DNA from: an uncultured Acidimicrobiia bacterium
Lineage (GTDB): Bacteria; Acidobacteriota; Terriglobia; Versatilivoradales; Versatilivoraceae
Direction of reading: 5' to 3'
DNA length: 64,000 nucleotides
Assembly (NCBI GenBank): GCA_963786955.1
Contig: CAWBAT010000004.1
Span: 736,001 to 800,000 of the forward strand
In this document: positions 33,424 to 59,112 of the stretch, piece after piece
Layout of the letters: every line of letters starts with the position of its first letter
Numbering within the stretch: the first letter of the stretch is position 1
Translations under genes and position numbers: made by a program
Notes under the pieces: model-generated
The model's input: only the letters and a program-made list of their open reading frames with translations
The model's database searches: none
What the model was told of the DNA's origin: nothing

Positions 33424-34137
33424 ATGAGTTTAAAAAGGATTCGCATCACTTGGTTAGGTCATTCTACCTTCAAAGTCGTCTCTCCAGAAGGAACCGTGAT
33501 TCTTATTGATCCCTGGGTCCGGGGGAATCCTGCCTGCCCGGAAGCCGCCCGTAAGTTGGAGCGACTGGATATCATGTTATTGACTCATGGCCATTTCGAC
33601 CATATTGGCGATGCCGTTGAGTTAGGCAAACAATATTCTCCTGAGGTAGTCGGGATCTATGAACTTGGACATTGGTTAGAAGGAAAAGGGGTCGGAAATA
33701 TCCGCCCGATGAACAAAGGAGGATCCCAACGGGTTAAAGATTTGGTAATCACCATGGTTCACGCCGATCATAGTTGTGGAATCCTGGATGACGGGAAGAT
33801 CATCTATGGGGGTGAAGCGGTCGGTTACATCATTGAATTCACCACCGGCTTTAAGATATACCATGCCGGCGACACCAATCTTTTCGGAGATATGAAGCTC
33901 ATCGGTCAACTCTATTCCCCCGACCTGGCCATGCTTCCCATTGGCGATCTGTTCACGATGAGCCCACGGGAAGCAGCCCATGCTTGCGCCTTTGTAGGTG
34001 CCAGAACAGTCATTCCGATGCATTTTGGGACCTTCCCTCCATTAACGGGCACGCCCCAAAAACTAAGGGAATTGACGCGTCATTTGCCAGAACTGGAAGT
34101 CGTCCATCTCGAACCCGGTGATTATATGGACATCTGA
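33424..34137 (+). CDS. Metal-dependent hydrolase, metallo-beta-lactamase fold (UlaG/UPF0173-like)
   Basis: WLGHS, THGHFDH, YHAGDT, LPIGD and IPMHFGTFP. Confidence 0.9.
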   Translation: MSLKRIRITWLGHSTFKVVSPEGTVILIDPWVRGNPACPEAARKLERLDIMLLTHGHFDHIGDAVELGKQYSPEVVGIYELGHWLEGKGVGNIRPMNKGGSQRVKDLVITMVHADHSCGILDDGKIIYGGEAVGYIIEFTTGFKIYHAGDTNLFGDMKLIGQLYSPDLAMLPIGDLFTMSPREAAHACAFVGARTVIPMHFGTFPPLTGTPQKLRELTRHLPELEVVHLEPGDYMDI

Positions 34138-34405
34138 GCCTTCGAGATGGAACCTTTTATGGAAGATCAAAGAAATCCTTTTCCCTTTTCCCTCTCTTAT
34201 TGGGCCCCATGGAAAAACAACAAAGATTGGACCATGTGCTTCTCTTCCGAACTATTCATTACAGCTCCTCTTTGAATCAGTAGTTTACAGTCCGATTGTC
34301 ACCGGTGGGCTCACCAGCCTCATGGATCCGCATTCCCTTCATGGAACATTCCAGGGCTCTGGAATTCAGTTTGCACCCTATTCGTCAAGGCAGTAGAGAG
34401 GGAAT

Positions 34406-34720
34406 ATGCGCGGACGCCACTTCATCGGAGATTTCATCGTAGTCTGTTTCATTCTTGTTCAGTTACTAGACTGGCTGGCCACGCTTCATGGAGTCACCCT
34501 TTTTGGAACTTCCATCGAGGCAAATCCGATGCTCCGATTTCTGATGGAAAAGTATGACATCATCCTGGTATTGACTGCCGCAAAACTGGGTGCCACCCTG
34601 GCAGCCTCCTTTCTCCACTATTTCGAACGCCATCTCCTGGTGGCCGCCTTGACTCTCTTCTATGCATTGTTTGCACTGATCCCCTGGATTCAGGTTTTTG
34701 GAAACTACCCGGGATTTTAG
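34406..34720 (+). CDS. Small membrane protein (DUF5658-like)
   Basis: QLLDWLAT..G....EANPMLR pattern with 3 TM helices and a GAGGG RBS. Confidence 0.7.
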   Translation: MRGRHFIGDFIVVCFILVQLLDWLATLHGVTLFGTSIEANPMLRFLMEKYDIILVLTAAKLGATLAASFLHYFERHLLVAALTLFYALFALIPWIQVFGNYPGF

Positions 34721-34959
34721 GGTCACTTTCAAAGTAATCCCCCTTCTCTTGACTCATATTTTCCACAGAAACAATCTTCCCCGCAGATTGATGCGTCAAC
34801 TCCGGCCATGAAATGGGCGGATGCCTTTGAAAACAGGACGGAGTATTAAACCCAAATTCCGAAGTTGGGTGGGCGGGATTTTTATCTATTTGTTGATTTG
34901 TCTGAGATTTGCAAGACGCTCAGGAAAGGGAAAAAGTATACCGATGATCTGCGGATTCA

Positions 34960-35025
34960 GGTGGAATGCGCACTCCGCCGCGCGTTCATTGAGCGTGCGC
35001 AGGAGCGCTCGCTCCACCTAGCGAC
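34960..35025. repeat. REPIN-like element (family A)
   Basis: GGTGGAATGCGC..GCGCGTTCATTGAGCGTGCGC..CGCTCGCTCCACCTAGCGAC. The end matches the reverse complement of 5651-5670 with one mismatch. Confidence 0.7.
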
Positions 35026-35462
35026 GTTCACGCAACTTCGGAATTCGGGTTAAAGGGATATTCGTTGAAGGTCTCTAGAACGGGCCCCATTCCACTCTCA
35101 TTTTTCATGCGAAGAATACGGCTGGTAATTCGGTGGATCTGCCGCTCTTCCCAGGCCTTTTCCTCATCTATAGCCAAGAAACGGTGCGGCGAGTTTGGGA
35201 AACGGAACACATGAACCACTTCATGGGTCAAAATTCAAGGCAGCAAGGACTCAAAAGAGATCCGCCCTCCCTGTCGAAAGGGACCAACAAAATGTGATGA
35301 GCTTCAAGCCTGATTTCATCTTAATTTAGTCGAATCCAATTCAGGTCACTCGAGCGGACACTAGCATGGATCCCTCAGCCTGAATCTTGATAAAAGCATC
35401 CATTTGCGGTATTCTACCGATGAATATCTCCAAAGGTTCAGTAAAGAGGAGGATCTTGCAGG

Positions 35463-35795
35463 ATGCCAATTTATGAATATGTATGCAGTAAGTGCGCCCG
35501 ACAATTCGAGGTCATTCAAAAATTTTCTGATAATCCTTTAAAAACCTGCTCCGAATGCAAAGGAAAACTAAACAAAATCATTTCGCAGTCTTCTTTTCAG
35601 CTCAAGGGAGCTGGTTGGTACGTGACTGACTACGCAGGTAAATCCAAGAGCACTAAAAAAGAGGATTCGAAGTCAGGAACCGATACAACTGTCAAGAGTG
35701 ATACAAGTTCAAAGAAAGAGGATTCGAAGTCAGGAACCGATTCAGCCGTCAAGAGCGAAACAAAACCAAAAGCAGAAGAAAAAAGCTCCAGCTAA
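35463..35795 (+). CDS. FmdB family zinc-ribbon protein with Lys/Ser-rich tail
   Basis: MPIYEYVCSKC...CSECKG..FQLKGAGWYVTDY, preceded by a GAGGAGG RBS. Confidence 0.92.
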   Translation: MPIYEYVCSKCARQFEVIQKFSDNPLKTCSECKGKLNKIISQSSFQLKGAGWYVTDYAGKSKSTKKEDSKSGTDTTVKSDTSSKKEDSKSGTDSAVKSETKPKAEEKSSS

Positions 35796-35824
35796 ATTGC
35801 ACTGGGGTACGCGGTCGTTAGCGA

Positions 35825-35854
35825 AGAGCCAGCCTACGGGCTGGCTTTTTTTTT
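35825..35854 (+). terminator. Rho-independent terminator downstream of the FmdB-type gene
   Basis: AGCCAGCC-TACG-GGCTGGCT stem-loop followed by a T run. Confidence 0.85.
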
Positions 35855-35921
35855 GAGCCTGAAACCGTGAATTAATCACGCTGGAAGTGCGGGCATCGTT
35901 CTTGCTTGCTATCCTGGGCCG

Positions 35922-36025
35922 TCCCCCCTTGAACAAGGGGGTGTTTGGTTCGGGGGGACATAGCTGACAGTGTTCGGAGACTCTCAAACCTCCCCCTGAC
36001 CCCCTCCTTGGTGCAAAGAGGGGGA
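35922..36025. repeat. CCCCCTT..AAGGGGG-type palindromes
   Basis: TCCCCCCTTGAACAAGGGGG and CCCCCTCCTTGGTGCAAAGAGGGGG, the same style as 19428-19546. Confidence 0.5.
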
Positions 36026-36371
36026 ACGTCATGTCTTTGACCAATTCCCCTGTCGGTTGGGCACGACGCCAAATCGGCGGTCTCGGCGATACCAACCTAC
36101 ATCTATTTGGCATCAATCCCTAAATCTGCTCTTTTCCTCGCCTGTCCACATGTTTGGAAATCACTCCCGTCCGATGTAGAAAGGAGCGGAAATCCTTTCT
36201 TGCCAAATTACAGACACCGTAACATGATAGTTACGTTTTTGTAAGTTGCCAACCCCTTCCGGCACGATCGCGGAAGTGCAACTTGTTTCGTTCTCGATAT
36301 CTGCCGGAATTCGCGAAATCCTTCTCCGAGTAAAGTGGGCAAGAGGAGGGCCAAAAGGGGAAAGCGGGTGT

Positions 36372-36881
36372 GAGTCTGAAGTTCAAGGTCCGGAGTTCAG
36401 AGTCCGGAGTCCGGAGTCCAAAAAGAAGTGCAAGGTCGAAGCCCGGTAAAAATAGTCCAAAGTCTAAGGTCGGTAAAAATAGTCCAGAGTCAAAGGTCGA
36501 ACGTCAAAGGTCAAAAGCTTAAAGACCGAGGTTAGCCGCAAAAAAGCGCAAAAACCGCAAAACAAAAATCCGAGTCCGAAAAAAGTCCGAGGGCCAAAGG
36601 CAAAGGCCGGTAAAAATAGTCCAGAGTCAAAGGTCGAACGTCAAAGGTCAAAAGCTTAAAGACCGAGGTTTGCCGCAAAAAAAGCGCAAAAACCGCAAAA
36701 CAAAAATCCGAGTCCGAAAAATAGTCAAAGGTCGACAAGAGAGTCCAAAGTCTAAGGTCCAAGGTCGAAGGCCGGAAAAAAAAGTCCAGAGTCAAAGGCC
36801 GGTAAAAATAGTCCAAAGTCAAAGGTCGAACGTCAAAGGTCAAAAGCTTAAAGACCGAGGTTAGCCGCAAAAAAGCGCAAA
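36372..36881 (+). repeat. Left arm of modular A-rich tandem array (3 core copies, last truncated)
   Basis: Core CGAACGTCAAAGGTCAAAAGCTTAAAGACCGAGGTTWGCCGCAAAAAAAGCGCAAAAACCGCAAAACAAAAATCCGAG, with AAGCTT landmarks at 36515, 36652 and 36844. Preceded by tandem heptamers AGTCTGA AGTTCAA GGTCCGG AGTTCAG AGTCCGG AGTCCGG AGTCCAA. Confidence 0.93.
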
Positions 36882-37006
36882 CCAATTTCAAAGTCAGCCG
36901 CGAATGGACTCCAATCAATGAATTACTGATGGGCCCAGGGCGATTGACAACACACTGGTTCAAGCCAGAGGGGCTTGAGGAAAATAATTTGGCTGCCTGG
37001 CATTGA

Positions 37007-37396
37007 CTACCACATCACTGTTGTCAGGGCTTCAACCTCCTGGAAATGAGAGTCTTGGGTTGCCAGAGTCCAGCCGTAGCGCAAGGCAGTGGCGGCGATC
37101 CAGATATCATTCTCTGGGATCGGACGCCCCTTGGTTCTTAGCTTTTCCTTGATTTCCCCGTAATGCAGCGCTGTGTCGGCGTCGCAGTCCAGGACTGCGA
37201 TTTCTCGGGTCAGTTGTTTGATTTTTTCACAATTGGCTTGGACTTGTCCGGACCTGCAGGCACCATAGTACAGTTCTCCGATCACGATGGCCGGGATTCC
37301 CACACGCTCTGAAGCTTCCAGTTGGGCCTTGACCCCCGGATCGTTGCCTAGCAGAGAGATCACCACATTGGTATCCAGTACATAGCTACCAGCCAT
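37007..37396 (-). CDS. vapC: PIN-domain toxin (VapC family)
   Basis: YVLDTNVV, VIGELYYGA, GRPIPENDIWIAATA and ATQDSHF carry the PIN acidic residues. Confidence 0.93.
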   Translation of the reverse strand: MAGSYVLDTNVVISLLGNDPGVKAQLEASERVGIPAIVIGELYYGACRSGQVQANCEKIKQLTREIAVLDCDADTALHYGEIKEKLRTKGRPIPENDIWIAATALRYGWTLATQDSHFQEVEALTTVMW

Positions 37397-37610
37397 GGGG
37401 TTCCACCTGCTCGCAACCCTTTTCTATGGCTTGGCGCATTGTTTCCAACTCTGTCAGCGGAATCGTTCCGGCAAAGTGGAGCAGCCTAACCCCGGGGGTT
37501 CCTGTTTGGGCTTCGTCGACGATGGCTTGGACGTAGTCCAATACCTTTTGTTGGAGATTCCCTGGAAGGGGCGCTAGTCGTTGCACAACTTCTTCAATAA
37601 TCGGATTCAT
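37386..37610 (-). CDS. Putative antitoxin (DUF2281-like) upstream of vapC
   Basis: 74 aa, MNPIIEEVVQRLAPLPGNLQQKVLDYV...LLHFAGTI. It has a GGAGG RBS and overlaps vapC by 11 bp. Confidence 0.8.
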   Translation of the reverse strand: MNPIIEEVVQRLAPLPGNLQQKVLDYVQAIVDEAQTGTPGVRLLHFAGTIPLTELETMRQAIEKGCEQVEPHGW

Positions 37611-37676
37611 TCTGGCCTCCTGCGTCTGCATCATATCATGACTTCGAATTTCGCGGTTGAAGGTCATAGATCAGGG

Positions 37677-38810
37677 GCGAGTGATAAGTGACGAGTATAA
37701 AGTCCAAAGTCTAAGGCCGAACGTCAAAGGTCAAAAGCTTAAAGACCGAGGTTTGCCGCAAAAAAAGCGCAAAAACCGCAAAACAAAAATCCGAGGCCGA
37801 AAAATAGTCAAAGGTCGACAAGAGAGTCCAAAGTCAAAGGCCGGTAAAAATAGTCCAGAGTAAAGGTCGAAAGTCAAAGGTCAAAAGCTTAAAGACCGAG
37901 GTTTGCCGCAAAAAAAGCGCAAAAACCGCAAAACAAAAATCCGAGGCCGAAAAATAGTCAAAGGTCGACAAGAGAGTCCAAAGTCAAAGGCCGGTAAAAA
38001 TAGTCCAGAGTCAAAGGTCGAACGTCAAAGGTCAAAAGCTTAAAGACCGAGGTTTGCCGCAAAAAAAGCGCAAAAACCGCAAAACAAAAATCCGAGGCCG
38101 AAAAATAGTCAAAGGTCGACAAGAGAGTCCAAAGTCAAAGGCCGGTAAAAATAGTCCAGAGTCAAAGGTCGAACGTCAAAGGTCAAAAGCTTAAAGACCG
38201 AGGTTTGCCGCAAAAAAGCGCAAAAACCGCAAAACAAAAATCCGAGGCCGAAAAAAAGGCCGGAAAAAAAAGTCCAGAGTCAAAGGTCGAACGTCAAAGG
38301 TCAAAAGCTTAAAGACCAAGGTTTGCCGCAAAAAAGCGCAAAAACCGCAAAACAAAAATCCGAGGCCGAAAAATAGTCAAAGGTTCAAGGTCAAAGGCCG
38401 GAAAAAAAAGTCCAAAGTCTAAGGTCGAACGTCAAAGGTCAAAAGCTTAAAGACCGAGGTTAGCCGCAAAAAAAGCGCAAAAACCGCAAAACAAAAATCC
38501 GAGGCCGAAAAATAGTCAAAGGTCGACAAGAGAGTCCAAAGTCTAAGGTCCAAGGTCGAAGGCCGGAAAAAAAAGTCCAGAGTCAAAGGTCCAAGGTGAA
38601 GCCCGGTAAAAATAGTCCAGAGTCAAAGGTCGAGCGTCAAAGGTCAAAAGCTTAAAGACCGAGGTTTGCCGCAAAAAAAGCGCAAAAACCGCAAAACAAA
38701 AATCCGAGTCCGAAAAAAGTCTGAGAGCCAAAGGCAGAAAGGCAGTGGTTAGTGATACGGGGTTGGGGGGGAAAGTCCGAAGTTCATTGTTCGAAGTCCG
38801 AGGTTCAATG
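37677..38810 (+). repeat. Right arm of modular A-rich tandem array (7 core copies)
   Basis: Same core as the left arm, with AAGCTT at 37735, 37885, 38036, 38187, 38305, 38443 and 38648 (spacings 150, 151, 151, 118, 138, 205). It ends with heptamers AGTCCGA AGTTCAT TGTTCGA AGTCCGA GGTTCAA. Confidence 0.95.
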
Positions 38811-38970
38811 ACTGAAAGTGCTTGAAAAAATCGGGAGGATGCCAAAGAATCGCTGTTGCCTGGTTTGAGATCCGTCCCCTGGGCGCGACAACATGCCTCG
38901 CTCGGTGAATTCGCCTGATCGGAGGTTTCGCTCATCCCTCTCACTCCCCTGAACTCCTTTGGAGATTCTC

Positions 38971-40014
38971 ATGCAAAAAATGAAGGCCCTGGTTAAAAAG
39001 AAATCAGAGCCCGGACTCTGGCTTGAAGAAGTTCCGGTTCCCGGTATCGGGATGAATGATGTCCTGATCAAGATTCTGAAGACTTCTATTTGCGGAACAG
39101 ACGTCCATATTTACAACTGGGATAGCTGGGCCCAGAAAACGATTAAGGTCCCCATGGTGATTGGCCACGAGTTTGTCGGCAGAGTCGCCGAGGTTGGAGC
39201 CAATGTCACCGGCTTTAAACCCGGCGATCTGGTTTCCGGCGAAGGCCATCTCGTCTGCGGCTTATGCAGGAATTGCCTGGCGGGCCGGCGACATCTTTGC
39301 CCGCACACCAGTGGGATCGGCGTCAATCGGGATGGGGTGTTCGCCGAATACCTGCAGATTCCGATGACGAATGTGTGGTATGCCGACGCGAGACTCCCCA
39401 CCGATATTCTCAGTTGCTTCGATCCACTTGGAAACGCGGTCCATACGGCTCTTTCCTTTGATGTGCTCGGGGAAGATGTTTTGATCACCGGCGCCGGCCC
39501 TATCGGTTGTATGGCGACAGCCATTGTCAAGCACGCAGGGGCACGCTTTGTGGTCGTGTCTGACGTCAACCCCTACCGCCTGGAACTGGCTCGCCGAATG
39601 GGAGCCACCCTGGCCGTGGATGCCCGAGAGGAAACAATTGAAGATGCCCAGAAACGGCTCGGGATGAAAGAGGGGTTTGATGTTGGATTAGAAATGTCCG
39701 GGAATGGTTCAGCTTTTCGAAGTATGCTCGCCAACATGTGCCACGGCGGCAAGATTGCCATGCTGGGCATTCCCGATCCCAATATGCAGGTAGACTGGAA
39801 TCTGGTCGTCTTCAATGGATTGACCGTCAAAGGAATTTATGGCCGCGAAATGTATGAGACGTGGTACAAGATGACTGTGATGATTCAAAGCGGGTTGGAC
39901 ATCACTCCCATTATCACGCACCGATTTCATTATAGTGACTTTGAGGAGGCCTTTGCTGTGATGCGTTCCGGGCAATCCGGAAAAGTCATTATGACATGGA
40001 TGGAAGAAAACTGA
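38971..40014 (+). CDS. tdh: L-threonine 3-dehydrogenase
   Basis: [41 protein letters not shown] and [14 protein letters not shown]. Confidence 0.95.
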
Positions 40015-40083
40015 CCGTGTCCGCCATGTTCCCGAGATTGGGTCACGATGGAGAAGCATACTCGATTTCATGGAGAAATATCG

Positions 40084-40740
40084 ATGATGAAAAAGTCCAG
40101 TTTAATGATTCTTCTGCTTTCATTGGTTGCGTTTGCCCTGATGTTTGCGCAGACGTCCCCTTCACAAACGGGTGAATCCAAGGAGAGCAAGCCAGCCAGT
40201 CCGGCGCAAAAGCCTGCCACAAAGACCGGTCAAACTAGTGAGGATTCCGCCAAAACCACGGCGAAGTCTACGGGTAAGTCCGGGACGAGTGCCTCCAAAA
40301 AGACGGAAGAAAAGCCAACAGAGGACATCAAGGAAGGGGGCAAGACTATCGGAGCGGGCGCAGCCGAAGGTTCCAAAGACTTGGGAAAGGGATCTGCTGA
40401 ATTTGGGAAGAAAATATCCAAAGGCAATGTTGTCGGTGCTGGTCAATCCATGGGAGAGGGAGCCGGAGACTTCGGCAAAAAGGTTGGCAAAGGAACAGGG
40501 AGCGGCGCCAAGGACATAGGAAAGGGAACGGCTGAGGGCAGCAAAGAAATAGGGAAAGGAACAGTCGAAGGGACCAAGAAGGTTGGAGAAGGAATAGCCG
40601 ACGGCACCAAGAAGGTTGGAAAAGCAACAGCCGAGGGAACTAAGAAAGTTGGCGAGGGTATTGGCAGTGTTGGGAAGAAGACTGCGGACGTGGTAACAGG
40701 CAAGGACGAGGAAAAGAAGGAAACGAAAACCTCAAAGTAA
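40084..40740 (+). CDS. Secreted low-complexity protein with 11-residue Gly/Lys/Glu repeats
   Basis: Signal peptide MMKKSSLMILLLSLVAFALMFA, then repeats KGTGSGAKDIG KGTAEGSKEIG KGTVEGTKKVG EGIADGTKKVG KATAEGTKKVG. Confidence 0.75.
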   Translation: MMKKSSLMILLLSLVAFALMFAQTSPSQTGESKESKPASPAQKPATKTGQTSEDSAKTTAKSTGKSGTSASKKTEEKPTEDIKEGGKTIGAGAAEGSKDLGKGSAEFGKKISKGNVVGAGQSMGEGAGDFGKKVGKGTGSGAKDIGKGTAEGSKEIGKGTVEGTKKVGEGIADGTKKVGKATAEGTKKVGEGIGSVGKKTADVVTGKDEEKKETKTSK

Positions 40741-40748
40741 TCCCCGCC

Positions 40749-41994
40749 TTACTCATGATAGCGTTTCAAAAGAAGCGCGGCATTGGTTCCTCCGAATCCA
40801 AAAGAATTCGAGAGGACGTATTCGAGATGCGGCTTTCCGCGCGACGTTGGGAACATAGTCCAAATCACAATCCGGGTCAGGATTTTCGTAGTTGATCGTC
40901 GGTGGGATTTGCTGGTGATATAGGGCTAGCGCGGAAATTCCACCTTCCAGACCGCCCGGCCGCGCCAAGCAGATGACCCGGTCATCGATTTTGTCGAGCT
41001 GATCGCCATCTTGTATGCCTGGTCGCCGAATGCCCGCTTGATCGCCATCGTTTCAAACCGGTCGTTATAAGGTGTCGAGGTTCCATGGGCATTAATGTAA
41101 TCGACCTGCTCCGGGCGAATCCCGGCATCCGTAACAGCGTTGAGCATGACCCGGTAAGCGCCATCTCCGTCCTCAGAGGGCTGGGTAATATGAAAGGCGT
41201 CTCCTGACATTCCGTACCCGGCCATCTCAGCGTAAATGGTGGCTCCCCGCTTCTTTGCCATTTCCAATTCTTCCAGAATCAGAATTCCGGCTCCCTCCCC
41301 GATGACAAATCCGTTCCGATCCAAATCAAATGGCCTGAGAGGCCCGACTGGGGCTCGTCATTGCGTGCGGATAGCGCTCGCATGGAAGCGAATCCTCCGA
41401 CGCTCATGGGTGTGATCGCAGCTTCCGAGCCGCCACAGATCATGGCATCGGCTTCGCCGCGGGCGATAATTCGAAATGAATCGCCAATCGCGTGAGAACC
41501 TGAGGAGCAAGCCGTACAGGTTGAGGTGTTGGGCCCTTTTGCTCCGAAGCGAATCGAAACCTGGCCGGCAGCCAAATTCACAATCGATGATGGGATAAAG
41601 AATGGTGAAATTCGTCCGAGGTCCTCCATTCATCAGTTCAGTGTGTTCGCGTTCAATGGTCGAGAACCCCCGATTCCGGAACCGATATGGACGCCAACCC
41701 GGGTCGCGATCGCGGGCGTGATTTTAATCCTGAGAGGTCGATCGCATATTGCGAGGCCGCAATCGCATAGTGGATGAAAGGATCCATCTTCTTGACTTCT
41801 TTTTTCTCAATCCAGTTCAAGGGGTCAAACCCCTTGACTTCCGCCGCAATTCGGACCGAAAACTTTGAAACATCGAATCGAGTGATGGTGTCGACCCCGC
41901 TCTTGCCCGCGATGAGCCCTTGCCAGGTTTCTTCGGTGCCAATTCCGAGGGCGGAGACAATACCAATGCCCGTAACGACGACTCTCCTACTCAA
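40749..41994 (-). CDS. fabF: Beta-ketoacyl-ACP synthase II, split by several single-base frameshifts
   Basis: Fragments [46 protein letters not shown] and [12 protein letters not shown] lie in different frames. Confidence 0.9.
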
Positions 41995-51765: not shown

Positions 51766-54700
51766 TTAGTGTTGTTCAAGGACCGGCGGGCTGAAATCCA
51801 GGGCAGCTAATTCTTCATAAATCCGCCAACGATTGTCCGCATCCTGCTGGGCTCGCCTCAGGAGTTCTTTCGCTTCTTCCGGTCGGGTCTTGGTTAACAT
51901 CTTGTAACGGTTTTCAAGATAAGAATACTCTTCAAACCGGATCTTAGGCTTTTTGTAATCTAACTGGAGCGGGTTCTTCCCCTCTTTGACGAGATCGGGA
52001 TTGTACCGGTACATCGGCCAATGTCCCGAAAGTACGGCTGCCTTTTGATTGTCCATAGCGGTTCGCATATTGATGCCATGGGCAATGCAATGACTATAAG
52101 CGATGATAAGGGAGGGACCATTGAAAGCCTCTGCTTCGGCAATGGCTTTGACCGTCTGGACATCACTCGCTCCCATGGCCACCTGTGCCACATAGATGGT
52201 TCCATATCCCATCATGATCTTTCCCAAATCCTTCTTGCCGACTGTCTTGCCTCCCGCCGCAAACTTGGCGACGGCACCCAGCGGAGTCGCTTTTGACATT
52301 TGCCCGCCGGTATTCGAATAAACTTCAGTATCGAGGACCATGACGTTGACGTTCCGGCCCGAAGCCAGCACATGATCAAGTCCACCAAACCCGATGTCGT
52401 AGGCCCAACCATCCCCGCCAATGATCCAAACCGATTTCTTCACCAGGTAATCTGCCAGAGAAAGGAGGTTGCGGGCGTCAGGGGTATTGATCTGAAGCAA
52501 AATTTTCTTCAGCTGGTCAACTTTGAGCCGCTGTTCATGAATTTCCGCTTCGTCGTTTTGCGGAGCTTGAATCAATTCACGGGCCAGTTCTTCACCAATC
52601 TGACTCGCCATTTTTTCGACAAGTCCTTTGGCCTGTTGTGTCTGCAAGTCAAGGGTTAGCCGGAATCCCAGCCCGAATTCCGCATTATCCTCAAACAATG
52701 AATTGGCCCAAGCAGGACCTCGCCCTTCTTTAGTCTGGGCCCAAGGGGTGGTGGGAAGATTCCCCCCATAAATCGAGGAACAGCCCGTTGCATTGGCGAC
52801 AATCAACCGGTCCCCATACATTTGCGTCAGCAACTTTAAGTAGGGGGTTTCTCCACACCCGGAACAAGCGCCGGAATACTCGAAAAGGGGTTGCAAGACT
52901 TGCGATCCTTTGATACTGGCAACCTTGACTCGTCGGCGATCGTACTCCGGCAGGTCGAGGAAGAAGGCGTAATTTTCCTTTTCCTGCTCGCGAATCGGAA
53001 GCTGCGGGGCCATGTTGAGCGCCTTGATCCTGACTTCCTTCTTGCTCTTGGCTGGGCAGACGTGAACACAAATCCCGCAACCCGTGCAGTCTTCAGGAGC
53101 TGTCTGGATTGACATCTTCATCCCTTCAAATTCCTGACCTTTGTAGTCCATGGATTTGAAAGTCGCGGGGGCATCCGCTCAGGAGCTGTGGATCATAAAC
53201 CTTAATTCGAATGGCTGCGTGCGGGCATACCAGCGCACACTTGGCGCATTGAATGCAGATCTCCTCTTCCCAGACTGGAATCTCCAAGGCTATGTTCCTC
53301 TTCTCCCATTGGGCTGTCGCCGTCGGGAATGTACCGTCCACAGGCAATGCGCTGACCGGGAGAGAATCTCCCAGCCCGGAGATGATGGTGGCCGTCACAG
53401 ATTGAACAAAATCCGGGGCTTCCTTCGCAACCATGGGGGGACGAGAGACCTTGCTTGTGACCTGCTCTGGAATCTTGACTTCAAACAAATTGGCCAGGGT
53501 CTTGTCAATCGCGTCAAAGTTCTTTTGGACGATCACTTCCCCTTTGCTCCCGTAAGTCTTACGGATGGAGCTCTTGATCTTTTCGATGGCTTCAGCTTGT
53601 GGCAGGATGCCGCAGATGGCAAAGAAACAGGTCTGCATGACCGTGTTAATTCGACCGCCCATCCCCGTTTCCGCCGCCACCTTAATGGCATCGATAACAA
53701 AAAAGCGCAACCGTTTCTCAAGGATGTCTCGCTGAACTTCGCGCGGCAGATAATCCCAAACTTCATTCGGCCCATAAGGGCTATTCAGTAAGAAAGTCGC
53801 TCCGGGAATGGCACTGGACGAGGACATCGTAGCGCTCCAGAAACTGAAACTGATGGCAAGCTACGAAATTGGCCGCTGTAATGAGATAGGTCGAATGGAT
53901 AGGGTTGGGGCCGAATCGTAAGTGGGAAACTGTGACGGAACCGGCTTTCTTGGAATCGTAGACAAAATATCCCTGTGCGTAATTGTCCGTATCTTCTCCG
54001 ATGATTTTGATGGAGTTCTTGTTGGCGCTGACGGTTCCATCAGATCCCAGACCGTAAAAAATTCCCCGAAAAACGTTGTCCGGCTCAATGGAAAAGGCAT
54101 GGTCGTAATCCAGATGCGTGTCCGAGATGTCATCGACGATCCCCACCGTGAAATGGTTCTTGGGGATCTCCTTCTTCAGTTCCCGGAAGATGCCCTCAAT
54201 CATGGCGGGTGTAAATTCTTTGGAGGAAAGTCCGTAACGTCCTCCCACGACTCGTGGCAACTGTCGCCAAGGCAATTTGCCATCCGCCTGTACTTCGCTA
54301 ATAGCCGTTACGAGGTCCTGGTAGAGCGGCTCCCCTATAGTACCGGGCTCCTTGGTGCGATCTAAAACTGCAATGGCTCGGACCGTAGCAGGCATCGTTT
54401 TCACAAACTGCTCAAGGGAGAACGGCCGGAACAACCGTACTTTGAGAACACCGACCTTTTCACCCTTGCCCGCAAGAAATTCCACGGTCTCATGGACTGC
54501 CTCGGCTCCCGAGCCCATCAGCACCAACACGCGCTCGGCATCGGGGGCTCCCACATAATCGAATAGATGGTATTGCCGTCCTGTCAGGGCCGCAAACCGA
54601 TCCATCGTCTTTTGCACGATTTCCGGACAAACCTGGTAGAAAGGATTGCACCCTTCACGGGCTTGGAAGAAGACATCGGGGTTTTGGGCAGAGCCCCGCA

Positions 54701-55343
54701 AAACGGGGTGATCCGGAGTGAGTGCCCGGGCACGATGGGCATGAACCCATTCATCATCAATCATCGCGCGAATATCCTCGAGGGCCAGCTCTTCAATCTT
54801 CATCACCTCATGAGAAGAACGGAACCCATCAAAAAAATGCAGAAACGGAACTCGCGCTTGCAGCGTGGCCGATTGGGCAATGAGCGCAAAGTCCATGACC
54901 TCTTGGACGGAGTTTGAGGCCAACATGGCAAATCCGGTGGCACGGGCTGCCATCACGTCACTATGATCTCCGAAAATGGAGAGCGCATGCGTGGCTACGG
55001 TTCGGGCTGCAATATGGAAAACGGCGGGAGTCAATTCTCCGGCAATCTTGTACATATTCGGGATCATGAGCAGGAGTCCCTGAGAAGCGGTAAACGTCGT
55101 CGCGAGAGCTCCGGTCTGCAATGCTCCGTGGATCGCTCCGGCGGCGCCCCCTTCACTCTGCATTTCTTGCACGATGGGAACTGTCCCCCACAAGTTCTTC
55201 CTGCCTTCGGCAGCCCAGGCATCCGACAATTCTCCCATCGGTGAGGAGGGGGTGATCGGGTAGATGGCGATCACTTCGTTTGTCAAGTAAGCCACATAGG
55301 CAGCGGCTTCGTTTCCATCTATGGTAACCAAACAGCGATTCAT
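51766..55343 (-). CDS. nifJ: Pyruvate:ferredoxin (flavodoxin) oxidoreductase, frameshifted at ~53820 and ~53170
   Basis: [71 protein letters not shown] and YSNTGGQ across three ORF fragments. Confidence 0.93.
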
Positions 55344-57279: not shown

Positions 57280-58986
57280 TTAAGCCGGTAGATAAGAGAT
57301 ATATTCCGGGTACCACATCTCCTCATCCACCTTCGTTTCGATTAAGTCATCCCGATAGGCTCTCCCGATACCACAATCTCGCGCTTCACGAACAACGGCG
57401 ATTGCGACATGACGCGTCACCTGACGAAGATCTGAACCTCTGGGATAGAGTGAACCCTTCGCCAGCCTTTCGTCGGAAATAATTTCTCCCAAGGCACGCG
57501 CCGCAACCAGGAACATTTCTTCGGTGATTTCATGAGCTACGCTTACGATCGCCCCGAGTCCTACCCCTGGAAATACGAACACATTGTTGGCCTGGCCGAT
57601 AACATGGACCCTGCCCTGATACTCCACAGGCGGAAATGGGCTCCCGGTGGCGACCAATGCTTTCCCCTCGGTCCACCGCAAGATATCGGCTGGAGCCGCT
57701 TCGGTCTTCGAGGTGGGATTGGAAAGCGGGAAAATCATGGGTACCGGAACGTGCTTCGCCATCTCCCGGATGACCCCTTCGGTGAATGCCCCGGGGACAC
57801 CGCTGGTCCCAATCAGGATCGTGGGCTTGAAGTGACGCACAACAGTTTCAAGATCATAGCGGTCTGAAGGGGGAAATCCATACAAGCTCATTTCCGAGGA
57901 GTGGAGTGCGAATGGTTTCTTGTCTTCATCGATTGAGGCTCTTTCGTCGAAAATAAGTCCCTGGGTATCCACCATGGCAATGGCTTCTTGAATAGTCTTT
58001 TCACTGGTTCCTTCCTGGCGCATCGCGAAGCGGACGAGACGGGCAATGCCAATTCCTGCGGCTCCTGCCCCCAGAAAAACAAACCTTTGCTGACACAGTG
58101 GCTGACCCAGTTTCCTCAAACCTGCGAAGATGCCGCCCATGATAACAGCCCCGGTGCCTTGAATATCATCGTTGAAGCAGGTGATACGATGACGGTATCG
58201 ATCCAAAATGACGGATGGCATTGTGCTGCTTAAAGTCTTCCCATTGCAGCACAACATGGGGAAAGACCGTGGAAACCCCTTCCACAAAAGCTTCAATGAA
58301 CTCATCATAGGCACTCCCACGGATCCGCGGATGACGATATCCCAGATAAAATGGGTCATCCAGGAGCTCCTGGCGGTCTGTCCCCACATCGAGGGAAATC
58401 GGTAAGGTCTTGGAAGGATGAATACCGGCCCCTGCCGTGTAGAGGGCCAGCTTCCCTACGGGGATTCCCATTCCTCCGGCACCCTGGTCGCCGAGTCCAA
58501 GAATCCGTTCGTTATCCGTGACTACGATCAACTTAACTTCTTCCTGCCGGGCATTATGGAGCAGGGTTGGAATTCTGCCGATGTCATCGGGGGTGATCCA
58601 CAATCCACGGGCCCGCCGAAAATGTGACTGAACCGCTGGCAGGCTCTACCCACCGTCGGTGTATAGACAATCGGCATGAATTCATCCAGGTTCTCCACCA
58701 GGACGCGGTAGAAAAGGACCTCATTGCGATCATGAAGCGCCGCCAATCCAATGTATTTCTCCAGATCATCACTCTTGCAACGCACATGCTCGATCTCTAA
58801 AGCAACCTGCTCTTCGATCGTCGTCATTCTCGGAGGTAGCAACCCCCTTAGCCCAAACAGGTCACGCTCTTCTTCGGTGAAGGCCGTATCTTTGTTCAGG
58901 GATGGATATTCCAGCAAATCTACCCCACGGAATGGAACTTCCGGGACGACGGAGTGGCTTGCATGCTCAGTTTTGACTGTATTCAT
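57280..58986 (-). CDS. maeA: NAD-dependent malic enzyme, frameshifted at ~58615 and ~58215
   Basis: [65 protein letters not shown] and [14 protein letters not shown]. Confidence 0.9.
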
Positions 58987-59112
58987 GAATTCTCTCTCCT
59001 TCCTGAAATCTGTCATGAAGTGGCCCTCGCACTCGAGACTTCAGGCAATAACGGATTGTGAGTCCTCAACGGTTCACTATCAATGACATCTCGTTGAACT
59101 GCCAAAAATAGC

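Follow-up and report, generated by a model that had tools for sequence, protein, structure and literature searches.

The 64,000-nt stretch of DNA considered here (the window; positions 736,001 to 800,000 of contig CAWBAT010000004.1, assembly GCA_963786955.1) comes from an uncultured soil or sediment bacterium of the Versatilivoraceae (Acidobacteriota), and it holds, between a gene for an fmdB-family zinc-ribbon protein and a threonine 3-dehydrogenase-like gene (tdh), a tandem array of A-rich repeats that encloses a toxin-antitoxin (TA) operon of the VapBC type. In this array a core sequence is repeated ten times on the same strand, with three copies to the left and seven to the right of the vapBC pair, which is encoded on the opposite strand (Table 1). 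An earlier note on this DNA had described ten one-strand copies with the same division, and our counts from coordinates and from exact k-mer matches agree with it; the third copy on the left is not complete, however, as it is cut after GCGCAAA, and the core measures 78-79 nt instead of the ~85 bp stated there. Copies show two substitutions at most, plus a length difference of one A in a homopolymer run, and the A6/A7 differences among them may be sequencing errors, as genes of the window are split by frameshifts. From start to start, the ten in-register copies reported by the repeat finder are spaced by 137, 192 and 891 nt, then by three intervals of 150-151 nt, and finally by 118, 138 and 205 nt. 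The spacers between cores (40-126 nt) are made of a few recurring blocks of GTCNAAG-type heptamers, and core and spacer together form composite units of 118-205 nt. Tandem Repeats Finder (TRF) reports array periods of 118-151 with scores of 494-1068, among them a period of 137 at 36457-36726 (score 494), a period of 151 at 37701-38255 (3.7 copies, 98% matches, score 1068) and a period of 138 at 38255-38523 (score 501).

As in prokaryotic satellites, a long non-coding unit is thus arranged head to tail at this locus. Short-period runs also make up the 78-79-nt core, with GTCAAAG-GTCAAAA-GCTTAAA followed by GCAAAAAAAGC-GCAAAAACC-GCAAAAC, and likenesses are seen between distant units as well, since the spacers after cores 2 and 9 are alike, as are the tails of cores 1 and 10. 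The array is a repeat of repeats, and it has the highest copy number in a family of non-coding arrays that are mostly without cargo. Its only open reading frames (ORFs) are short, repeat-derived frames of 50-143 aa. A lysine-/arginine-rich repeat protein broken by homopolymer errors was considered and rejected: each unit has stops in every frame, a start context is lacking, and the sister species has no insert there.

The core is specific to this locus. In the window's own genome (G000, a 5.65-Mb assembly), the 14-mer CAAAGGTCAAAAGC occurs ten times, every time on the plus strand between fmdB and tdh, and the nine genome-wide occurrences of CCGCAAAACAAAAATCCGAG are confined to the same place. 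The 151-nt unit is found at this locus only, together with seven weak matches of 30-60 nt to modules elsewhere, and the 620-nt leader that precedes the array is single copy in the genome, short module matches aside. Searched against 40 relatives, the core gave weak module matches only, of 24-36 nt, in the two congeners. A 23-mer of the core had no exact match in genome_contigs (one genome each of 185,579 species), and its two matches in JGI metagenome contigs are both on contigs of the fmdB-tdh locus. The search of the genome and its relatives that the earlier note proposed therefore yields a locus-specific core. Contigs of four public sequencing runs hold pieces of the unit with 0-3 differences. 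One contig of run X2 has a match that ends at 35855, beside the boundary of the insertion described below, and in one contig of run X1 unlike sequence gives way to the cassette at 36896; each is at most a hint of another allele.

The enclosed cassette is a VapBC-type operon. Its toxin, VapC, is a PIN-domain protein of the ~130 residues seen in this class, and it matches PF01850 at 84.5 bits (cut-off 23.6) over profile positions 1-118 of 120; NCBIfam VapC models match it too, at scores under their equivalog cut-offs. The adjoining 74-aa ORF is, from its position, the putative antitoxin gene; its product has no Pfam family and a weak match to VapB (E 0.0021, 18.5 bits against a cut-off of 60). 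The opposite-strand antitoxin-vapC pair that had been read from the sequence is thus well supported for the toxin and weakly matched for the antitoxin. The vapC gene is single copy in the genome, and the 817-bp cassette had no DNA match among 30 other genomes of the family. VapC has 1805 homologues (named tRNA(fMet)-specific endonuclease VapC in their source annotations), of which those at 88-94% identity are all on contigs of 1.8 kb or less, and the remainder, from several phyla, are at most 59% identical. By comparison of sequences, the operon is foreign and ordinary. The GCCGCGAATGGAC module that opens its left junction is present in the arrays of contig C5 too, and the promoter scan found no consensus sigma-70 site in the region upstream of the operon (37611..37716). 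Ends of the kind that delimit transposons or miniature inverted-repeat transposable elements were not found at the cassette, where there is a lone 13-nt pair (36884-36896 and 37639-37651, 85% complementary) whose right arm falls inside the cassette and not at its end.

The fmdB-tdh interval differs between strains. In the sister species (G001), where the flanking genes have ~75% nucleotide identity to those of the window, fmdB, its terminator hairpin and tdh are all kept, and the interval spans ~300 bp without a heptamer tract; this is an empty allele. Relative to it, window positions 35860 to ~38810 (2.95 kb) are an insertion that replaces ~58 nt and sits exactly between the fmdB terminator and the retained tdh upstream region. 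Homology to G001 stops after ...ttttgagcc (window 35859), the terminator being the last sequence common to the empty allele; the terminator scan did not rank this hairpin as terminator-like, and it was read by eye in both genomes. The metagenome contig L125 matches window positions 34883-35930 (98.2% over 1048 nt, fmdB being kept at this identity) and 36010-36222 (95.8%), and diverges after ...cagacaccgtaa. Its cargo is, in order, a minus-strand pair of DUF433 and DUF5615 (PIN-like) genes, one repeat unit and a plus-strand pair of DUF433 and DUF5615 genes (matches at E 1.8e-25, 3.2e-31, 2e-19 and 3.4e-13), and neither pair occurs in G000. A second metagenome contig, L126, has at least two units, with the second core truncated at the same point as in the window; ~100 extra nt follow the cut core, between AGCCGCGAATG direct repeats, and then comes the same vapBC at 97.9% identity, with a right flank that is unlike the window's and has no unit in it. 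The non-reference alleles seen are therefore three, one empty and two on partial contigs, and the locus varies between near-identical strains in unit number and TA cargo. This comparison of relatives, suggested in the earlier note, bears on its statement that a core unique to the locus, with constant cargo and copy number, would point to simple local slippage: the core is indeed unique to the locus, but cargo and copy number are not constant. Separately, L125 carries between its two matching leader blocks an extra element of 139 nt (positions 1048-1186 in minus-strand reading, inside the first CCCCC..GGGGG hairpin of the leader), which is a small mobile or palindromic element; it has a 93.5% match at G000 C5:1624512-1624650 and weaker copies on at least four other contigs.

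The heptamers of the array belong to a lineage-wide family of repeats between genes. G000 holds 46 tracts with four or more GTCNNNN(N) units, grouped in 22 clusters, and a general period-7 scan gives 128 tracts (on contig C7, 10 in the real sequence against 0 in the shuffled one). Of 31 genomes of the family, with G000 counted, 6 contain GTCNRRR in four successive copies, and they represent 3 of 11 genera, against 0-1 genomes for the reversed control; the tracts are lineage-specific, mostly intergenic tandem runs of a 7-nt unit at many loci, in the manner of short tandemly repeated repetitive (STRR) sequences. They are accompanied by short-period modules, namely CACGGGGAA in two copies, GCGAAT, GCNCAAAG, AATG runs and G5/C5 palindromes, which cluster at C5:160-265 kb. 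Further higher-order arrays, built from related modules and free of cargo, lie at C5:254865 (204 nt x 2.8) and C2:131348 (119 nt x 4.1), and the core resembles the matching part of both the 204-nt and the 119-nt unit. The array on C2 (131348-131837) consists of four tandem 119-nt non-coding units with a GCCGCAAAGAAGCGCAAAAGTCGCAA module and adjoins what, by its look, is an apparent tRNA gene. Period-7 arms also stand on both sides of 6 of the 8 PF05635 (IVS-like four-helix-bundle) genes of G000. There the arms form an inverted pair, in which the downstream arm reads as the reverse complement of its upstream partner, and the heptamer type differs by locus; the types include GTCNAAG, GAGTCCG and an AATG type, and the same types recur in the modular repeats. 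Throughout a region that comprises ftsK, a four-helix-bundle gene, cutA, ftsB and a tRNA gene, tract positions and orientations agree between G000 and G001, and G008 shows the first part of this arrangement. The PF05635 gene between ftsK and cutA lies in GTCNAAG/CTTNGAC inverted tracts in three genera, and further tracts lie upstream of a tRNA gene beside an integrase gene. The module-rich part of C5 (195-265 kb; L102-L105) is a polysaccharide biosynthesis/export cluster with glycosyltransferases, a flippase, a Wzz-type kinase, an export protein and a NusG-like gene, and it also holds a PqqD, transglutaminase-like and asparagine-synthase trio that is suggestive of a lasso-peptide set. The syntenic counterpart of this cluster in the relative G002 (contig C20; L121, L122) has the same gene families and modules, with repeats filling many intergenic gaps.

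TA pairs are found beside these repeats at other loci. At C5:201 kb in G000, a second slot holds an antitoxin-like ORF and a ParE-like toxin gene (PF24732, E 1.7e-09) between same-strand tracts, and the sense strand of the pair is the T-rich strand, as it is for vapBC. The syntenic slot in G002, upstream of the same TPR gene, has a YafQ/RelE-like pair instead; the flanks of the two slots are 86-89% identical, the modules between them are scrambled, and BLASTP does not align the toxins with each other. Round tracts or modules in relatives, 12 loci of 3 kb were sampled, and two of them have TA pairs, HigB-HigA in G016 and a HicA-HicB-like pair in G002. Nine TA toxin genes were located in G000 (four PIN, one ParE-like, two HigB-like, one PemK and one DUF5615), in a census that left out ParE_like, YafQ and several other toxin families as genome-wide searches and in which searches for ParE_toxin and HicA found none; genes beyond the ORF lists were called with a simple longest-ORF script. 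Two of the nine lie inside clusters of period-7 tracts, which with 500 bp on each side make up 1.7% of the genome, and two more lie within 3 kb of a tract. The association of TA pairs with repeats recurs but is partial, and is suggestive only.

Table 1. Features of the fmdB-tdh locus (coordinates in the window) and the PF05635 locus used for comparison.
Feature	Coordinates	Strand	Remarks
fmdB-family zinc-ribbon gene, left core-genome flank	35463..35795	+	PF09723 E 6.9e-16; TIGR02605 E 1.6e-19
fmdB terminator hairpin and T-run	35828..35854	+	gccagcc-tacg-ggctggc, then T9, in window and G001
Non-repeat leader with two CCCCC..GGGGG hairpins	35860..36221		common to the L125 allele, absent from G001
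Strain-specific part of leader	36222..36371		no L125 counterpart; single copy in genome
Heptamer tracts (GAGTCCG and GTCNAAG types) opening the array	36372..36496	+	TRF period 7 and 27; period-7 scan
Left array: cores 1 and 2 whole, core 3 cut after GCGCAAA; heptamer spacers of 59 and 113 nt	36497..36883	+	same cut in L126
Left cores	36497-36574, 36634-36712, 36826-36883	+	third ends early, after GCGCAAA at 36883
Junction and 3' flank of TA cassette	36884..37006		opens with a repeat-family module of the genome, GCCGCGAATGGAC
vapC, PIN-domain toxin, 129 aa	37007..37396	-	PF01850 E 1.1e-23
Putative vapB antitoxin, 74 aa from ATG behind GGAGG	37386..37610	-	overlaps vapC by 11 nt
TA operon upstream region and right array junction	37611..37716		common to L126 until ~37685, then alleles diverge
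Right array: cores 4-10; spacers of 71, 72, 72, 40, 60 and 126 nt	37717..38708	+	
Right cores	37717-37795, 37867-37945, 38018-38096, 38169-38246, 38287-38364, 38425-38503, 38630-38708	+	
Right tail of inserted block	38709..38810		tail of core 10 resembles that of core 1; absent from G001
tdh upstream region kept from the empty allele	38811..38970	+	similarity to G001; promoter-like site 38822-38850, 9 of 12
tdh (threonine 3-dehydrogenase-like), right core-genome flank	38971..40014	+	87% protein identity to G001 orthologue
PF05635 locus between ftsK and cutA	G000 C8:452.2-454.3 kb (L106 7150-9480); G001 C72 (L120 1700-3720); G008 (L111)		

We favour, with a confidence only a little above even, the interpretation that the locus is a hierarchical non-coding satellite at a strain-variable intergenic hot spot, expanded by unequal recombination and holding addiction modules as its surviving cargo. 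According to this interpretation, an insertion of ~2.95 kb would have built up after the fmdB terminator and before the tdh promoter, as a block assembled from the lineage's own motifs (7-nt GTCNAAG and GAGTCCG runs and 9-10-nt runs of the GCGCAAA type), and one composite unit of core and heptamer spacer would have been amplified to ten copies through unequal homologous recombination or replication slippage. Such a history of amplification is suggested by the near-identity of the cores, the block-built spacers and the likenesses between spacers (cores 2 and 9) and tails (cores 1 and 10). A self-contained, horizontally acquired vapBC operon would have taken the place of the end of core 3, and in sister strains the same locus carries other TA pairs. 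Inserts between direct repeats are readily deleted by recombination, and a cell that loses an addiction module falls victim to the longer-lived toxin; for this reason TA modules may persist between direct repeats where other inserts vanish, and survivorship of this kind, argued from TA biology, would be the likeliest reason for the TA cargo. As a side effect, the TA pair would keep the two half-arrays apart and from collapsing into one. The dispersed repeat modules could serve as portable homology, through which cassettes would be exchanged by ordinary recombination, making a dedicated enzyme unnecessary.

Several points weigh against this interpretation. No recombination event has been observed, and the run contigs over the array are short and fragmentary. 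In L125, two cassettes of opposite orientation lie round one unit, which is not the arrangement of a cassette between two arrays. Five of the nine toxin genes of G000 are more than 60 kb from any period-7 tract, leaving the link between TA pairs and repeats partial, and both toxin genes inside tracts were found via the repeats, an ascertainment bias in a small sample. Finally, heptamer tracts stand at orthologous intergenic positions, in the same orientation, in G000, G001 and G008 (three genera), which speaks for a function or an active generating process over neutral slippage alone, and neighbouring heptamers show a systematic difference at one position, as recent slippage would not usually leave. 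Because the tract positions are kept in three genera and the heptamer is degenerate yet constrained, we retain roles in cassette exchange and in protein binding as live rivals. The locus is a fast-changing hot spot, and not a proven new capture machine.

The first of these rivals, which is unlikely but deserves to be kept in view, holds that small selfish genes are exchanged as cassettes in this acidobacterial lineage by a system whose functional elements are the heptamer tracts, acting by an enzyme or by homology alone, in which tract-bounded slots would gain, exchange and lose TA pairs where the arms are direct and four-helix-bundle genes where they are inverted; the fmdB-tdh array would then be an expanded slot. 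The IVS-like PF05635 cassettes share heptamer families with the array, and it is GTCNAAG tracts that bracket the PF05635 gene at C8:452 kb. Those cassettes have inverted arms and a four-helix-bundle gene, whereas the fmdB-tdh locus has direct flanks, TA cargo and an amplified core that is not a heptamer, and it is not a cassette of that kind.

We are more doubtful that the repeats are recognition sites of a dedicated, integron-like capture and exchange system, in which a recombinase encoded elsewhere would swap TA cassettes. The variation of cargo between strains at fmdB-tdh, the existence of an empty allele and the second slot with unrelated toxins in two species are all consistent with such a system, as is the occurrence of at least seven TA pairs of six families beside tracts or modules in G000, the L125 strain, G002 and G016, together with the two of nine G000 toxin genes that fall within the 1.7% of the genome occupied by tract clusters and their 500-bp flanks. 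Sedentary chromosomal integrons offer a model, as TA cassettes with their own expression signals stabilise their cassette arrays, and like integron arrays the present locus has small repeat-separated cassettes with TA pairs in either orientation, to which the idea that TA modules protect repeats is applicable. The junctions, however, vary: vapBC cuts a core after GCGCAAA, the second DUF433 pair follows ...AAAGGTTCAAGG within a spacer, and the first abuts the leader. Moreover, the modules of the second slot are scrambled between species and are not conserved sites; the unit has no palindrome and as RNA folds no better than shuffled sequence, and inverted repeats are found neither within nor between units; and of the nine gaps between cores a single one holds genes, the other eight being ORF-free heptamer spacers of 40-126 nt. 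Unlike integrons, the array has no adjacent IntI, no attC-type imperfect palindromes that could form hairpins and no layout of one cassette per repeat, most of its repeats being free of cargo. The earlier note had seen no transposase, integrase, cas gene or reverse transcriptase in the window, and this is borne out by a scan of 45 window ORFs of at least 100 aa, 31 of which have a Pfam family: no integrase, transposase, reverse transcriptase or Cas family, and no recombinase, is among them. The integron integrase model TIGR02249 had no match above its cut-off in the whole of G000. Its best partial match is a truncated 167-aa IntI-like ORF (190 bits, profile positions 1-146) at C4:289.9-290.3 kb, in an integron-like locus 483 kb from the array whose attC-like repeats, GGCTSGCCGCTTAATT..., are unlike the A-rich core. 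In that locus (C4:289.8-298 kb; L131 9835-18000), small unrelated ORFs, including Mrr-like and SnoaL-like ones, come after the IntI-like ORF on the opposite strand. The landing pad that the earlier note proposed is thus supported in part, by variable cargo and an empty allele; no palindrome, fixed junction or nearby recombinase was found that would point to a dedicated mechanism.

Slightly less probable still is that the tracts, and with them the array, are binding sites for a lineage-specific DNA-binding or nucleoid-associated protein that would insulate, silence acquired DNA or mark a boundary, the array being an expanded site. Across three genera the tracts hold the same places and orientation, although their exact sequence changes within the limits of GTCNAAG, and they are concentrated in flexible regions such as the polysaccharide cluster and the TA slots, as a protein-binding role might lead one to expect. 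But a period of 7 bp does not keep step with the turns of the DNA helix, amplification has affected the 78-79-nt core, which is species-specific, and no candidate protein has been identified.

The suggestion that the array is transcribed into a repetitive A-rich RNA, which would either soak up an RNA-binding protein (Hfq, for example) like a sponge or control vapBC in antisense, is improbable. All ten units lie on one strand, antisense to vapBC, and this strand is extremely A-rich (AT skew ~0.5-0.6 across the array); multi-site A-rich sponge RNAs occur in other bacteria. However, the consensus scan found no sigma-70-like site in either array, the three sites in the region (1.6 expected) all lying outside units, and the fmdB terminator stands upstream. 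Single units fold like dinucleotide shuffles on either strand (as RNA, z -0.76, +0.35, -0.54 and +0.16), and a search of Rfam at E <= 1 over 34000-41000 gave three chance-level matches, all outside units. A core confined to one species, with one unit in a sister strain against ten here, would also be odd for a regulator. The antisense or repetitive RNA put forward as an alternative in the earlier note therefore finds neither a promoter-like site in the units nor folds better than those of shuffled sequence.

That the array is an assembly artefact, its repeats wrongly expanded or joined, is most improbable: the genome has frameshift-type errors (fabF, PFOR and malic-enzyme genes split in the window), homopolymer lengths vary among cores and no read or contig spans the array, but two independent metagenome contigs show core-spacer-core and core-cassette junctions of the same kind, contigs of the four public runs carry unit pieces with 0-3 differences, and spacers of six lengths and compositions are not a product of collapse or expansion error. 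The split genes of the window encode a beta-ketoacyl synthase (40929-41994), a pyruvate:ferredoxin oxidoreductase (51769-55343) and a malic enzyme (57283-59016), each in two or three ORFs, which is the pattern expected from homopolymer errors of long-read assembly.

Other features were observed in the flanks of the insertion. The 3' part of fmdB contains two tandem 57-nt copies (35655-35768, 84% identical) that encode a doubled KKEDSKSGTD... segment of its low-complexity tail, and the tail is shorter in G001. Between a DUF5658 gene and fmdB lies a dispersed element of ~200 nt (34845-35055), which overlaps a 62-aa ORF without an NCBIfam family and has 53 blastn matches including its own place, 19 of them of at least 140 nt (18 elsewhere, 70-89% identical) and ~30 of them partial. 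On the other side, tdh has 596 relatives in genome_contigs.

The locus differs from two known systems in which repeats accompany toxin genes or spacers. In type III TA systems such as ToxIN, short repeats lie on the toxin strand directly upstream of a ToxN-type toxin gene. The present locus likewise has a tandem repeat array next to a toxin gene; unlike type III systems, it has a PIN-domain VapC and a protein antitoxin gene, and its units of 118-205 nt lie on the opposite strand and on both sides. Clustered regularly interspaced short palindromic repeats (CRISPR) have repeats of 24-48 nt and unique spacers of similar length, and usually cas genes. Here the repeat is 78-79 nt long, the spacers repeat one another from a few heptamer modules, and no Cas family is among the scanned window ORFs, so that the array is not a CRISPR locus.

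Closer relatives are found among repeats of short and long units. STRR heptamers are known from heterocystous cyanobacteria, and heptameric repeats are reportedly enriched in Xanthomonas and Nostoc. A study by MacGregor (2015, PMC4679880) describes TAACTGA as an intergenic heptanucleotide direct repeat in Beggiatoaceae, Cyanobacteria and Bacteroidetes. The G000 tracts resemble such known bacterial heptamers in being lineage-specific 7-nt tandem tracts between genes at many loci, with no function assigned, and differ from them in that the heptamer is degenerate at one position, is joined with other motifs of short period into 118-205-nt units, and is amplified ten-fold with a TA cassette inside. 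Long-unit satellites are rare in bacteria, and families of transposed non-coding satellites rarer, according to a survey by Subirana and Messeguer (2019, PMC6749651). Like those satellites, the fmdB-tdh array is a non-coding long-unit tandem array in a bacterial chromosome; unlike the surveyed ones, it is hierarchical, strain-variable and interleaved with selfish gene cassettes. A report on Photorhabdus (PMC13617665) describes different TA systems at one interval between core genes, with empty alleles elsewhere and short repeat flanks in some cases. In Photorhabdus the flanks are palindromic res-like sites or elements of the insertion sequence or integrative and conjugative type, which indicate known mobile elements (PMC13617665), whereas the flanks at fmdB-tdh are same-strand, non-palindromic satellite units without a mobile-element gene. 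In the literature searched, which covered few subscription journals, no satellite array of this kind around TA cassettes is described, nor are GTCNAAG repeats reported from Acidobacteria. What is new here is the higher-order amplification together with TA cargo that varies between strains.

The locus ties heptamer repeats to the rare long-unit satellites, as its heptamers are built into a higher-order satellite with strain-variable units and TA cargo. It therefore offers a test bed for two questions, namely whether direct repeats select addiction modules as the only persistent cargo, and whether small selfish cassettes recombine by way of heptamer tracts. Should both answers be no, the locus would still be a well-documented hypervariable intergenic hot spot in a little-studied phylum. 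If cassette exchange does take place in this lineage, it would give the heptamer repeats of bacteria a concrete role as portable recombination sites.

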